Assembly (NCBI RefSeq): GCF_900232105.1
Contig: NZ_LT934425.1
Location: 690,001 to 722,000 of the forward strand
Reading direction: 5' to 3'
From: Candidatus Kuenenia stuttgartensis
GTDB lineage: Bacteria > Planctomycetota > Brocadiia > Brocadiales > Brocadiaceae
DNA: 32,000 nucleotides
The position numbers and the translations under genes are program-made. Under the pieces are notes generated by a model, which ran no database searches, was not told where the DNA came from, and saw nothing but the letters and a program-made list of their open reading frames with translations. Shown here in pieces: positions 4,129 through 30,578 of this stretch (position 1 is the first letter of the stretch; the number at the start of each line of letters is the position of its first letter).

Positions 4129-4497
4129 ATGAAAGACGGGCTAGCTGAAATTGGGACAGTTGTATCGGCAGATTCCGGCTCCTAACCATGCTCTTGCAGC
4201 GGATAGCAAAAAACCGCACCTGCTGAATAACAGTGTTAGATCAATACCACGTACAAAAGAATAATTCTTTTTTACAACGGAGCAGAAAGCGGACATCATG
4301 ACTTCAAATATTCCCTTTATTGAGGAGATGCTATTTACAAGGAAAATGCTCCCTACACGAAGCTTCGCTTACTTGCTAAATGGAAGCGAAAACTTCCAAT
4401 GCAATTACGTTCCCAAGCCGGGGGTGCATTCCCGATTTTTTGTAAATATAGTCAAAAAACAAGGTTTTCGGAAGATGAATAATAAAATTTATTGCAA

Positions 4498-4553
4498 GGG
4501 TGGTACGGGCATTCCTGCCTGTATTCTGCACAGGCAAAATGCCTGTGCCACCC
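4498..4553. other. Long near-perfect hairpin inside the MITE-like element
   Basis: GGGTGGTACGGGCATTCCTGCCTGT-ATTCTGC-ACAGGCAAAATGCCTGTGCCACCC forms about 23 bp of pairing with one small internal loop. Confidence 0.6.
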
Positions 4554-4589
4554 GTATAGACAGGCAGCTTGTGTATTAAATATCACAAG

Positions 4590-4698
4590 CAGTCATCATG
4601 TTTCATTCGCAACACCCAGAAACGATGAAAATGGTTTTATAACCATATCGTGTGGTAGTATCTGTGCCTAAACTATTTTTTGTAGTCTTACTTCCGAG
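4590..4698 (+). repeat. 109-bp direct repeat, copy 1
   Basis: Aligns without gaps to 5019-5127 with 14 mismatches (about 87% identity). Confidence 0.85.
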
Positions 4699-4795
4699 TT
4701 GGAAACATCTGGCATTTCTGTTTCTGTACCGATTCAAATGTATAATGGCCATCCAAAAGGTATCAGCTTGTAATCGCGAGGGTCTTTTTCAGCTC

Positions 4796-4986
4796 GTCAT
4801 TGCGAGGGTCTTTTCTGAAGCAATCAATATACTACGAGATATTTCGTGACGTAAGAAACGCCATATCGCGGGAGAAACAAATTAAGGGTGGCTCAAGGGC
4901 TAAAAAAACAGAATTAATTAATGGAATGAATGCAGGGGTCTATGACGGTTTATGAGATTGCTTCGGAAAAAGACCCTCGCAATGAC
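4796..4986. repeat. ~30-bp inverted repeat pair bracketing the GIY-YIG remnant
   Basis: GTCATTGCGAGGGTCTTTTCTGAAGCAATC (4796-4825) matches the reverse complement of 4956-4986 with one indel. A partial extra copy of the left arm lies at 4775-4795. Confidence 0.8.
4830..4955 (+). pseudogene. GIY-YIG (UPF0213-type) nuclease, C-terminal remnant only
   Basis: Translation YYEIFRDVRNAISREKQIKGGSRAKKTELINGMNAGVYDGL* matches the C-terminal ..A..REKQIKGWSR.KK..LI...N motif of small GIY-YIG proteins. The N-terminal GIY/YIG part is missing. Confidence 0.7.
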
Positions 4987-5018
4987 AAGCTGATGCCTCG
5001 TAATGACAAAATAAGTCT

Positions 5019-5127
5019 CAGTCATCATGTTGTATTAGCAACACCCAGAAACGAGAAAAATGGGTTTATAGCCATATCGTGTTGTAGTATTTGTACTTAA
5101 ACTATTTTTTATAGTCTTATTTTCGAG
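5019..5127 (+). repeat. 109-bp direct repeat, copy 2
   Basis: See copy 1 (4590-4698). Confidence 0.85.
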
Positions 5128-5237
5128 CCAGGATGCTTGTGTTACATTGTGCAGATAATTACAAAAAATCGGGAATGCACCCCAAGCCGGAGTTTGGAAG
5201 TAAGCATTTTTATTTTTTCAATATTTCTTTTTAAAAA

Positions 5238-6191: not shown

Positions 6192-6338
6192 CCATTGACC
6201 GTAACAGGAAAACCATGGAAAAGTATGACATATTCAAGGGGTTCACAAAATGTGATTTTAGAAATGTTATAACTATTTATATCAACAAAAGTTTAAATCT
6301 AATTTAGAAATCTCTATTTATGAACCCTTACAGTATAA

Positions 6339-12900: not shown

Positions 12901-12973
12901 CGCCGTGCTTTTCCAGCATACGTTCCAGAAAGCGCAAGTCATCTTCTGAATAATTAGCGATAAGTATCTTCAT
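9920..12973 (-). CDS. Response-regulator receiver / PAS / GAF / PAS / GGDEF / EAL c-di-GMP turnover protein
   Basis: REC domain starts at MKILIANYSEDD..ICDILMPHMDG..LVKP. The two PAS segments each carry a DITE[HR]K-type end. The GGDEF motif is intact (RFGGDEFAILL). EAL motifs are present (YEALLR, DDFGSGFSS, LKIDGSFI). The start is moved to ATG12973 because the upstream extension runs through a repeat element. Confidence 0.9.
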   Translation of the reverse strand: MKILIANYSEDDLRFLERMLEKHGGEVTSATNGLTAFETLQNNRFDLIICDILMPHMDGFQFCRKCKTNKYLRNIPFIFYTTAFTGRRAREYAMSLGADRLLVKPMPADIFIDAVMSTLNGYKKYLPHPISAFSGKDETEFCRNYNEYLIRKLERQLLDSEGENIGLEENELKFANLASVINDGIVVLNENGHITHWNPAAEKIFGYSEEEMKGKNILNVIGGAEHTEPEMRFFNNIKAGCIINETIEITGVKKNKSEFPLEASFSTLQIGRQIHIIAIFRDISERRKKDDEKRKKQAILQLINEVFDTAHDLLTVDSTMRLYLKKMCRYLGWPVGHICKVIYTVNGAIRLESTRLWYFENTKEFSLLRKIGENTILKPGEDLPGKVFSSRKMEWIPDVTKDSNCIRAQHAIVKSAAIGVRGAFAFPIKEGDKILYIFEFFSRKEEKPQAIFFEVVDNLALQLGRLIERKRADERIRKLSQVVEQSPASILITDKEGIIEYVNPKLAELTGYTGDEIIGRTPRMLKSGKTSNETYRNLWNTIISGKEWQGELLNKKKTGELYWEHVHISPIRNHKGHVTNYLAIKEDITEHKKFETQLLNMATRDPLTNLFNRRRFQEELQYWIAQTLRYGATGALLFLDLDNFKYVNDTLGHQAGDELLIRLAEMLRSRLRDTDIFARFGGDEFAILLPYTDREKAGLIANEILELTREHTFEHSKVTFSIGIVIFPEHGRDAETLLVNADLAMYRAKESGRNRFCVFSQEQKTHIEAQINWEKRIRNALDNDRFVLHLQPVIDLSNKNIIGYEALLRMLGEKDELIFPAEFLSIAERFGLIRDIDRWVVCSAIRLAAEQQFSDRGIFLDINLSGKAFADTELLGIIKHQFNTSGTKPGSIVFEMTETAMMENMIAAQDFLAALKHMDCRFSLDDFGSGFSSFNYLRHLTVDYLKIDGSFINDLPNNPVDQHMVKAIVELAHGLKKRTVAEFADSGDTLQLLRKLGVNYAQGNYIGKPRSVSEVFN

Positions 12974-13083
12974 GGTAGTATCGGTTTTTAAATAATGTGC
13001 CTTTGCAGCTTCAGGTTTACAACGCAAACCCATACAGTTTATACGGGTAATTGCGCCATATATCTCCTCTTTATCAAAAGTAA

Positions 13084-13200
13084 GGGCGAAACATTTGCTG
13101 CAAATTGGCATAAATGCGTTCATGCCCAAACTGGCAAATGCTTCGCCCCTACACTATGCGGCAGACACCGGTATTATTGGAATTTCTCTAAAAACTAAAT
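13084..13200 (-). repeat. Structured intergenic repeat, copy A (family shared with 22430-22553 and 30368-30432)
   Basis: On the minus strand it has a conserved 5' module, TTTAGTTTTTAGAGAAATTCCAATAATACCGGTGTCTGCCGCATAGTGTAG. This is followed by the 15-bp arm GGGCGAAGCATTTGC, a 35-nt loop, and the arm GCAAATGTTTCGCCC. About 90% identical to copy B outside the loop. Confidence 0.8.
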
Positions 13201-13225
13201 TGTTATCAAAAAATTATCCCCGTTT

Positions 13226-20644: not shown

Positions 20645-20777
20645 TTTATATATAGCTAAAAGTATCTATTCCCCGAAAAATTTAATGTAGCATCTTAATA
20701 TCGATAGGGTTGGTTGGCACGAACAAACTTATTAGTCCCTAAGCTGGTATAGCTGGAACATAACAAGCACAATATAA

Positions 20778-20900
20778 AAAATCCGAAATGCGAAGCACGA
20801 AATCCGAAACAAATTTCAAAATACAAAATCTCAATGAAAAAAACGGGTTTTGAACATTTTGAAATTAAAATTTAGCATTTATTTCGTATTTCGAATTTGG
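20778..20900. repeat. CGAAAT/ATTTCG-rich imperfect palindromic repeat (family copy 2)
   Basis: AAATCCGAAATGCGAAGCACGAAATCCGAAACAAATTTCAAAATACAAAATC ... GAACATTTTGAAATT...ATTTCGTATTTCGAATTTGG. It is related to 14222-14265 and 25940-26115 and lies inside the carA-carB spacer. Confidence 0.65.
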
Positions 20901-20963
20901 TTGCAGCCAAAGGCCGCGCCAAGAAATCTGTGGTTTCCTTTTTGCTCATATCTCTCCAAAGCA

Positions 20964-22085: not shown

Positions 22086-22119
22086 AATTTATAACACCGG
22101 GGAATTTCAATATTTTTGT

Positions 22120-22198
22120 ATAGACGCATTGCATACGTCTCTGTTTTGTCAACATTTTCATTACATGCAACAGTTTATAGACGCATGCAATGCGTCTA
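22120..22198. repeat. Two copies of a palindromic motif, TATAGACGCAT..ATGCGTCTAT
   Basis: Copy 2 (22176-22198) is a perfect 10-bp dyad with a 3-nt centre, ATAGACGCAT-GCA-ATGCGTCTAT. Copy 1 (22120-22140) is a degenerate version. Confidence 0.75.
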
Positions 22199-22228
22199 TG
22201 CAATTAAACATCAGCAACGGCATAAAGT

Positions 22229-22429: not shown

Positions 22430-22553
22430 GTAACACTTTAGTTTTTTGAAAAATTCCAATAATAGCGGTGTTTTGCCGCATAGTGTAAGGGCGAAGTATT
22501 TGCTGTAAATTGTCATAAATGCATTCATACCCAAAGGAGCAAATGTTTCGCCC
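22430..22553 (+). repeat. Structured intergenic repeat, copy B
   Basis: Same 5' module and 15-bp arms as copy A (arms at 22489-22503 and 22539-22553). The 35-nt loop (22504-22538) is the reverse complement of the copy A loop. Confidence 0.8.
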
Positions 22554-22691
22554 ATTCTTTTTAAAAAAACTAAAATGTTACGAAATTATCGTATATTTAT
22601 GTAATATTATTATCTTTAAATAACAGTTCATGCTTGTCCTTTTACAACACGGGCAGTATTTCATAGACAAATCAATTGTGAGGTGTATTCA

Positions 22692-25939: not shown

Positions 25940-26115
25940 AAAATCCGAAAACACGAGATACGAAACAAATTCCAATAACAAAATGATTTGAAATTCTAAA
26001 CAAGTACGTCTTTCGTATCTTGCATTTCGTGCTTCATATTGTTGTATGTTTTGGATTTTATGCTTTGTTATTCGAATTTGTTTCGTATTTCGTACTTCGT
26101 ATTTCGTATTTCTTG
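25940..26115. repeat. CGAAAT/ATTTCG-rich palindromic repeat (family copy 3) with 25-bp inverted arms
   Basis: ATACGAAACAAATTCCAATAACAAA (25958-25982) matches the reverse complement of 26064-26088 at 24 of 25 positions, with an 81-bp spacer. It is flanked by ATTTCGTA tandem units (26081-26110). Confidence 0.7.
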
Positions 26116-26362
26116 CTTGGTTCAGGCTTTGCCAGTTTAGGATACTGAGAGGGTTAAACATTGTCAAGCCAATAACAGATATACTCAAAAGGTTTACAGT
26201 TTAATACAAAGCCATTTACTGGCCAAAAAACCCATTATCATTTTGCTATAATCGTTGACGGAATTTGTTAACTGTGCTAAAATTCCTTACAATGTATTCC
26301 TTTTCACATGAAGGGAGTATCGTCATATTATCACATAGCATCGTACAAATATCGTTATTTAA

Positions 26363-28129: not shown

Positions 28130-28907
28130 ATGAAAAAAAAATCACCCGTAAAAAAATCATTGCCTTAATGGGTATCATTATAATTGCGATTGTTGTACTC
28201 AAATATCTGGACAGAGTAGAGCCGGTTCTTGAAATCGTTCCAATGGAATTAAATTTTGGCGATATTGAAACCAAAAAGTCATTTACCTTACTGAATAAAG
28301 GAAAAGAAAAGTGGAAAATTCTTTCTAATGTAAAGACACTTCAGTATGAAATTGATATCCCTAAAGACATCGAATGGATTTCGCTTCCGCTAAAATCCGG
28401 GATGTGCGAAAAACAAGAAGAAAAAAACGTCACTGTTGTTATTAACAGAGATAAACTTTCCGTAGGGAAGAACATGTGAACAATCGAAGCAAAATCGAAT
28501 GACAACAATAAAACTATTAATATTGTAGCGGAGAGGATAAAAGAAGAAAAATTCATAAAAATAATGCGTCCCCATGCAAGAACGTCATTGTTAATAGACA
28601 ATGAATTCACTATTCAGTGGATAGCAACCGCAAGCATAGGTAATTATGTGGATATTCTTCTTTTACTATACCGTAAGAGTTCGCAAATAGGGATTTCTAA
28701 AATTAGATTTAACTTTTGTTGAAATAAATAGTCATAGTATTTCTGGAATCACATTTTATGTACCCCTTGAGTATAACTGATCCCATAATAGAAACTATCG
28801 TAAAATCTTACAATTACAGAAAAGATGATACAAGCGATGGAAATTATAAATGGATGCCGAAAAGTCCGCTTCGTCCCGGAGAAGAGAAATATACTCAATC
28901 AGACTGA
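28130..28907 (+). pseudogene. Decayed (or slippage-dependent) gene for a membrane-anchored Ig-like-domain protein
   Basis: A strong SD, AGGAGG (28116-28121), precedes ATG28130. An A9 tract (28133-28141) puts the signal-anchor MKKK(ITRKKIIALMGIIIIAIVV) out of frame by one nt. An in-frame TGA at 28477-28479 falls inside a conserved-looking ..LSVGKNM*TIEAKSNDNNKTINIV beta-sandwich motif. A further frame change occurs before the ..DGNYKWMPKSPLRPGEEKY tail, which ends at 28907. Confidence 0.5.
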
Positions 28908-30367: not shown

Positions 30368-30432
30368 GTAACACTTTAGTTTTTTGAAAAATTCCAATAA
30401 TAGCGCTGTTTTCCGCACAATGTAGGGACGAT
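30368..30432 (+). repeat. Structured intergenic repeat, truncated copy C (5' module only)
   Basis: GTAACACTTTAGTTTTTTGAAAAATTCCAATAATAGCG is identical to copy B. Similarity fades at ..TGTAGGGACGA, and the hairpin arms and loop are absent. Confidence 0.7.
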
Positions 30433-30433
30433 G

Positions 30434-30457
30434 GATTATGGATTACGGACTACGGAC
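30434..30457 (+). repeat. Heptanucleotide tandem repeat (GATTATG GATTACG GACTACG GAC..)
   Basis: Three and a half 7-nt units immediately follow repeat copy C. Confidence 0.55.
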
Positions 30458-30578
30458 ATCCTTCGTCTTTCGTCTCTAGCTCTTACGTTTTTCAAAAGAC
30501 GCAATTTAAATGATTTTTTTGCGATGCTTTTAACACTCCAACAGGCAGCGTAATGTCTGAATATAACCATTCAATGAT

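Follow-up and report, generated by a model that had tools for sequence, protein, structure and literature searches.

We analysed a 32,000-nucleotide stretch of DNA (hereafter the window) that matches assemblies of Candidatus Kuenenia stuttgartiensis, among them GCA_900232175.1 and CP049055, the complete PacBio genome of strain CSTR1 (PMC7709395). Near its start, an ORF at 153-659 encodes a small multidrug resistance (SMR) protein (PF00893), and upstream of the called start of this ORF, or overlapping it, lie an Rfam match to a group II intron (183-259, 57.5 bits) and then a guanidine-II riboswitch (272-318, 45.4 bits). A guanidine-II riboswitch with an SMR gene is a classic pairing; a group II intron-domain match beside the pair is odd. 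Several kinds of repeat are also present: a cluster of direct and inverted repeats around 4421-5183; a 108-nt inverted pair at 6230-6337 and 28667-28774, 81% complementary and 22 kb apart, which belongs to a family of its own; runs of inverted TTTCGTA/CGAAAT-type short repeats in two intergenic regions (20776-20815 and 20872-20902, and 25949-26122); and a separate palindromic repeat, TTGTATAGACGCATTGCATACGTCT / AGACGCATGCAATGCGTCTATGCAA, at 22116-22203. Sequence similar to this last repeat lies beside the ortholog of copy A (see below) in Kuenenia sp. Bin_40 (L027).

The subject of this report is a different repeat of about 150 bp, a miniature transposable element (MITE) with terminal inverted repeats (TIRs), which occurs in the window as copy A, beside a PAS/response-regulator gene; copy B, upstream of ribBA; and copy C, a sister element. 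Loop orientation is named F when it is that of copy B and R when it is that of copy A, both anchored on a one-sided left module. The features are as follows.

22430-22581, + strand: copy B, a complete 152-bp MITE with the loop in orientation F, the majority type; TIR matches at 22430(+) and 22581(-)
22430-22453, + strand: left TIR (TIR-L) of copy B, GTAACACTTTAGTTTTTTGAAAAA, which pairs with 22558-22584 at 89% complementarity
22454-22484, + strand: asymmetric left module of copy B, which sets the orientation of the element and is kept in all three window copies and about 65 copies of other genomes
22485-22503, + strand: left arm of copy B, GTAAGGGCGAAGTATTTGC, with two changes relative to the consensus
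22504-22538, + strand: 35-nt loop of copy B, orientation F
22539-22557, + strand: right arm of copy B, GCAAATGTTTCGCCCATTC
22558-22581, + strand: right TIR (TIR-R) of copy B, in inverted pairing with TIR-L and with a TIR match
13080-13206, - strand: copy A, the same MITE with the loop in orientation R, its TIR-R lost beside the PAS/response-regulator gene
13183-13206, - strand: TIR-L of copy A, with a TIR match at 13206(-)
13153-13182, - strand: left module of copy A
13134-13152, - strand: left arm of copy A (element orientation), GTAGGGGCGAAGCATTTGC, identical to the consensus
13099-13133, - strand: 35-nt loop of copy A, orientation R, flipped relative to the module
13080-13098, - strand: right arm of copy A (element orientation), GCAAATGTTTCGCCCTTAC
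30368-30516, + strand: copy C, a sister MITE with the same TIR-L and left module and another inner hairpin, built from short GACG.../...CGTC repeats

The hairpin itself lies at 22489-22553 (+) in copy B and at 13084-13148 in copy A, whose element is on the - strand. In K. stuttgartiensis, copy A lacks TIR-R (13056-13079), while its ortholog in Bin_40 (L027) retains it together with about 100 nt of extra sequence, and the difference therefore reflects a deletion or rearrangement at the edge of the element, by the regulator gene. The called start of the PAS/response-regulator ORF falls within the loop of the MITE: a SNP decides between 13111 and 13123, and so between products of 1063 and 1067 aa. 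More plausible as a start is the ATG at 12973, which lies downstream of the element. Sister elements like copy C occur at other sampled loci as well (L022, L024, L029/L061, L085, L089 and L093/L097), where they measure 186-194 bp and their inner hairpin consists of GACGRYG... / ...CTCGTCT short-repeat runs whose number varies by copy.

The repeat is a non-autonomous transposable element of anammox Brocadiaceae, because it has 24-nt TIRs, is bordered by 8-bp target-site duplications and is present in about 65 copies over several genera. The module pattern, scanned for in one genome per species, hit 74 stretches. Real copies account for about 65 of these and come from Kuenenia sp. Bin_40, several Brocadia species, Jettenia and related Planctomycetota MAGs. 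The copies are small, non-coding and dispersed, and occupy 64 distinct loci in pieces sampled from about a dozen genomes. Perfect 8-bp target-site duplications border 24 of 54 complete copies and duplications matching at 7 of 8 positions border 6 more, against fewer than one expected from shuffled pairing. The layout is constant: a 24-nt TIR, the 30-nt one-sided module, a 19-bp arm, a loop of 34-35 nt, the second 19-bp arm and the second 24-nt TIR. In the consensus, TIR-L is GTAACAATTTAGTTTTTTGAAAAA and TIR-R its complement, the module is TTCCAATAATAGCGATGTTTACCGCGCCGT, and the arms, GTAGGGGCGAAGCATTTGC on the left and GCAAATGCTTCGCCCCTAC on the right, form a perfect palindrome, so that the whole consensus element is one long palindrome in which only the module and the loop are asymmetric. 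Folded as a single strand, the whole element makes one hairpin (dG -45 kcal/mol, z = -10.5), and the F and R forms are equally stable. RNA-type covariation in the arms was unsupported, with 2 compensated against 82 uncompensated changes.

Rfam has no family over the element, either for the window at gathering thresholds or for copy B at E<=1, and among about 600 kb of sampled DNA we found no TIR pair around a transposase that could mark a partner IS; a DDE transposase just beyond the window likewise has no such TIR within the 21-kb locus L001. The GTAA ends and the 8-bp duplication are, we presume, reminiscent of the IS66 family. Lone TIRs border other small elements with unrelated interiors. 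The same 24-nt TIRs and 8-bp duplications also surround unrelated interiors at L008:6853-7018, L030:7013-7177, L032:6129-6257, L043:6952-7166 and L039:5353-5511, the last of which holds a diverged version of the hairpin beside a different module. Since the same TIRs enclose unrelated interiors, the hairpin is carried as cargo by a transposon superfamily defined by its TIRs, and there is, to judge from these shared termini, such a MITE superfamily in anammox genomes. Our search of the literature returned no description of this anammox repeat or of its TIR superfamily, and the family and the superfamily, which are common to anammox genera, are apparently new to the literature.

Two other origins for the hairpin were considered and set aside. 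The arms do start with GTAG and end with CTAC, as would suit REP/REPIN units with a RAYT. RAYT-mobilised units are without target-site duplications, however, and here such duplications are present and 63 of the 64 hairpins adjoin the MITE module, a count that takes in L020:5687 after inspection and leaves L032:2314 as the exception. Nor did we find the hairpin free of the MITE framework, as expected of a mobile hairpin unit inserted independently in either orientation; moreover, R copies match F copies of the same genome outside the loop too. The exceptional hairpin, L032:2314-2378, has the same 19-bp arms around an unrelated 37-nt loop and belongs to a partial element that lacks TIR-L and module and keeps only a TIR-R-like flank; on its sequence it looks like a loop replacement, not an inversion. 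A short REP-like GTAG...CTAC palindrome, GTAGRGGCAGGTTTTAAACCTGCCCCTAC, recurs separately in Brocadiaceae MAGs (L032:6129-6257 and the flank of L063).

The first-pass annotation had claimed that the segment between the arms is flipped between copies A and B, and this is borne out. With both elements read in their own orientation (copy B on the + strand, copy A on the -), the two loops match at 8 of 35 positions directly and at 28 of 35 as reverse complements, a level reached by none of 100,000 shuffles, the best of which gave 21. It had also held that the loop is not self-complementary, and indeed the two 35-nt loops pair with themselves at only 6 and 10 of 35 positions. The asymmetry of the arms, on which the claim had partly leaned, contributes little: the arms of A and B match at 29 of 30 positions in element orientation and at 27 of 30 if flipped, which makes them a weak discriminator, and the consensus arms are perfectly palindromic. 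What makes the flip unambiguous is the 30-nt asymmetric module (TTCCAATAATAGCGNTGT...), which is present on one side of the hairpin only and anchors the orientation of the element. The placement of the breakpoints in the inner part of the arms did not hold up, as it rests on arm differences younger than the inversion. The right-arm T common to A and B is missing from the Bin_40 ortholog of copy A, which is already flipped, and the T therefore post-dates the inversion and is uninformative on breakpoints. A right-arm C-to-T change (GCAAATGCTTC to GCAAATGTTTC) recurs at three independent loci (window 13092 in A and 22546 in B; L014, L084), and this position may be a mutational hotspot.

Tabulating loop orientation across genomic copies, as the first-pass annotation had proposed, shows that both orientations occur throughout the family. 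After merging orthologs and duplicates, we count 53 F and 11 R loci (64 in total), a strong departure from 1:1 (binomial p = 1.7e-7), and about one copy in six has a loop inverted base for base. A scan of metagenomes found only 19 stretches; these contributed three further distinct R loci as well as several pairs of orthologs, among which no polymorphism was seen. Kuenenia-type copies are R more often (8/26) than Brocadia-type ones (2/34).

How many events lie behind the R copies bears on whether a single ancient inversion could have founded an R subfamily, with both subfamilies transposing since and no further flips. R copies probably do transpose: the R loops of L045 and L059 are identical at different loci, so some R copies may be transposed descendants of another R copy, and target-site duplications are intact or nearly so in three R copies. 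Yet R loops agree fully with F loops from their own genome and are unlike the R loops of other genera. The loop of L010 is an exact reverse complement (34/34) of at least five F copies in the same Brocadia genome, and the loops of L045 and L059 are exact reverse complements (35/35) of those of L071 and L077 in the same Kuenenia genome (Bin_40). About five positions distinguish the Brocadia-type loop from the Kuenenia-type one, so descent from one old R lineage would require changes to have occurred in parallel in each genus. No diagnostic substitutions were found outside the loop, and R tips do not cluster in neighbour-joining trees built from the whole element, from its non-loop part or from the loop alone, where the F/R state takes 10-11 changes for 12 R tips against a mean of 11.2 for shuffled labels (P = 0.19-0.58). 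Since the R tips are scattered like shuffled labels, the copies are not two old subfamilies, and the flip has recurred. We thus regard a lone ancestral inversion as quite unlikely. At least two to three flips are secure from the exact sequence identities, and there were probably about 10 independent ones, an estimate at the upper end of the range because trees of ~150 nt are noisy. As a check on whether R copies are the older ones, they make up 3 of 27 with intact target-site duplications and 9 of 38 without (p = 0.33, a trend only); the excess among copies with degraded duplications fits accumulation of flips in situ and is not significant.

Recurrent flipping in the family goes together with stability at each locus. 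Locus A is R in at least 10 K. stuttgartiensis assemblies, one of them matched by the window (L001, L002 and L100-L107, of which L100-L107 comprise six NCBI assemblies, including CP049055, and two ENA metagenome assemblies, all eight differing only by a SNP), and it is also R in Kuenenia sp. Bin_40, where the flanks are 92-94% identical. Copy B has the same structure, with its loop in orientation F, in all six assemblies examined (the window, L001, L002, L088, L082 and L014), and the other orthologous pairs agree as well (L077/L086, F/F; L096/L098, R/R). Once made, an orientation is therefore stable per locus at assembly level, that is, in consensus sequences, which cannot show minor orientations. 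The first-pass annotation had named two signs of an ancient one-off event, namely one fixed orientation per locus in all reads and a division of the copies into two old, divergent subfamilies; at the level of assemblies the orientation of each locus is indeed fixed, but the copies do not form such subfamilies, and the flips are recurrent and recent. Contig breaks in Logan (k=31) at window 22506, in the loop of copy B, and at about 22455, in its module, were considered as signs of mixed orientation and rejected as such: a flip of the whole loop keeps the base before 22506, so the break comes from a paralogous copy or from a SNP at 22505.

The same comparison disposes of the idea that loops between inverted repeats were mis-oriented during assembly. 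Inverted repeats longer than k leave the orientation of a loop ambiguous in de Bruijn graphs. The 19-bp arms are shorter than any usual k, however, and a second species shares the orientation of locus A, with a flipped loop that has gained substitutions. As locus A is concordant in at least 10 independent K. stuttgartiensis assemblies, including the complete PacBio genome (PMC7709395), an assembly artefact is effectively refuted.

Per-locus stability also weighs on the possibility that the hairpin is a programmed inverton, in which an invertase encoded elsewhere would flip the loop by way of the 19-bp arms and phase-vary neighbouring genes, such as ribBA downstream of copy B. Inverted repeats do flank the segment, both orientations exist in the family, and the arm/loop junction of the Brocadia type, TGCTATAAT, resembles in sequence only an extended -10 box that a flip would move to the other strand; in most copies the junction is either this or TGCTATAAA, with the same mere resemblance. 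A search for an invertase came back empty, with no serine or tyrosine recombinase among the window ORFs compared with Pfam (some short ORFs had no match or fell outside the search, and a 90-aa ORF carries a sub-threshold Fis-type HTH) or among the Pfam matches already assigned to the genes called in L001 (~20-21 kb). Promoter-like sites in A and B, and terminator-like sites too, are no more frequent than expected by chance, and the 35 nt contain no ORF. Every assembly, across two Kuenenia species, has one orientation per orthologous locus, and because the same TIRs hold unrelated interiors, the hairpin is transposon cargo, not a dedicated switch.

The rate of flipping points the same way. In a star-phylogeny approximation, we obtain 0.175 flips per copy against 0.088 substitutions per site, so flips occur about twice as often as substitutions at a single site. 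This is a mutational frequency far below that of programmed switches: together with the F:R ratio of 53:11, it places the loop orders of magnitude behind known ones. We therefore consider a programmed inverton very unlikely, and the evidence indicates that the flip is an ordinary type of mutation rather than a genetic switch. Of the two mechanisms offered in the first-pass annotation, the template-switch or hairpin-mediated one fits all the findings, while the mini-inverton, or site-specific, half is unsupported, as the window ORFs searched gave no recombinase, promoter signals do not exceed chance, each locus has one orientation in all its assemblies and the rate is mutation-like.

We consider it likely that the best explanation is spontaneous inversion of the loop mediated by the arms, an event that is recurrent, rare and stably inherited at each locus. 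The copies show 19-bp arms, perfect in most of them, that abut the loop directly, and in R copies the whole loop is reverse-complemented with its length kept. As the TIRs and the arms are palindromic in the consensus, the loop can change its orientation with respect to the module only through an event between the arms; if the TIRs recombined, the element would simply be turned round as a whole. For the molecular step itself, we infer either a template switch or recombination within the hairpin. Perfect 19-bp arms would enable the loop to invert spontaneously in two equivalent ways. First, during replication, an inter-strand template switch in one arm could lead to the loop being copied from the other strand, with a return switch in the second arm. 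Second, the arms could recombine with each other in an extruded hairpin or cruciform. In either case, the rare flip, once made, would be passed on stably at its locus. Because the arms are perfect in most copies, no breakpoint or footprint of arm conversion is visible.

The flipped loop could also have come from elsewhere, by ectopic gene conversion, in which an oppositely oriented copy pairs through the palindromic arms and donates its loop reversed relative to the module of the recipient. Palindromic arms and TIRs give opposed copies direct homology on both sides of the loop, each genome has many copies in both orientations, and the outcome would be indistinguishable from that of a flip in situ. 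Against this, the homology is only 19 bp per side, with the module interrupting one flank, and 19 bp is below the length normally needed for RecA-dependent conversion. The arms of one element are just 35 nt apart, which favours an intramolecular event, and none of the 63 module-adjoining hairpins belongs to a chimeric element with two modules (L032:2314, the remaining one, is partial and has an unrelated loop). We judge conversion between copies to be improbable.

Spontaneous inversion by the arms might also continue at a low but measurable level in living Kuenenia and Brocadia, driven by the hairpin and re-aiming an outward extended -10 promoter at the arm/loop junction. We regard this as a long shot; if it were true, the transposon would seed its host genome with dozens of stochastic micro-switches that need no recombinase, for example upstream of ribBA.

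As it stands, spontaneous loop inversion in these elements adds a further instance, in an apparently undescribed MITE family, of a type of mutation already known, and reveals no new regulatory mechanism. It has practical consequences nonetheless. When repeats or intergenic regions are aligned, a loop flip looks like a cluster of about 27 substitutions, and in PhaseFinder-type screens that take inverted repeats as their starting point it risks being counted as an inverton. Gene callers begin ORFs inside the element, as for the PAS/response-regulator gene by copy A. The MITE superfamily is also relevant to the reported plasticity of the Kuenenia genome.

Among known systems, the Correia elements of Neisseria and RUP are bacterial MITEs. 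With these and with MITEAba12 (PMC6382973), the present family shares a length of about 150 bp, TIRs, target-site duplications, many intergenic copies and strong hairpins. For none of the MITE families covered by our literature search did we find a description of a recurrent internal loop flip. Bacterial invertons, such as those of Hin, Gin and FimB/E and the invertible promoters of Bacteroides, resemble the hairpin in that inverted repeats bracket a segment found both ways, and Jiang et al. are said to have surveyed invertons with PhaseFinder in 2019. Those known usually measure at least about 100 bp and contain a promoter or a coding segment; they depend on a recombinase, and their orientations are mixed within populations. 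Unlike these, the MITE loop is a 35-bp segment with an orientation fixed per locus and with no recombinase or promoter detected in the sequences searched.

Closer parallels are found among spontaneous inversions. Template switching inverts spacers between short inverted repeats in yeast, recurrently and reversibly (PMC8604942), and loop inversions occur in rRNA hairpins, including those of bacteria (PMC8794818). Besides template switching, recombination in an extruded hairpin has been described for short inverted repeats (PMC8604942, PMC8794818), and both routes for chloroplast hairpins too (Kim & Lee 2005, cited in PMC12928735). The MITE has in common with these cases a pre-existing perfect inverted repeat, arms that stay perfect while the spacer alone is changed, and events that recur and can be reversed (PMC8604942, PMC8794818). 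Its loop of 34-35 nt, however, exceeds the spacers of 2-8 nt usually ascribed to template switching (PMC8604942, PMC8794818). Here the mechanism is inferred, and no footprint of arm homogenisation was found among the copies.

Minute hairpin-loop inversions in chloroplast non-coding DNA were reportedly described by Kelchner and Wendel in 1996. Such inversions have loops of 5-50 bp and arms of 11-24 bp (Kim & Lee 2005, cited in PMC12928735), ranges that include the 19-bp arms and 34-35-bp loop of the MITE. They share with the MITE flips a reverse-complemented whole loop, recurrence with homoplasy and no dedicated recombinase. They differ in that the chloroplast inversions are described at single-copy plastid loci compared between plant species, whereas the MITE is present as dozens of paralogs with both states in one genome. 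These paralogs serve as replicates, and it is they that allow the rate of flipping to be estimated. The best reading of this likeness is that the MITE flips are a bacterial counterpart of the chloroplast minute inversions, and they provide a clean bacterial case of hairpin-loop inversion with an unusually long loop.
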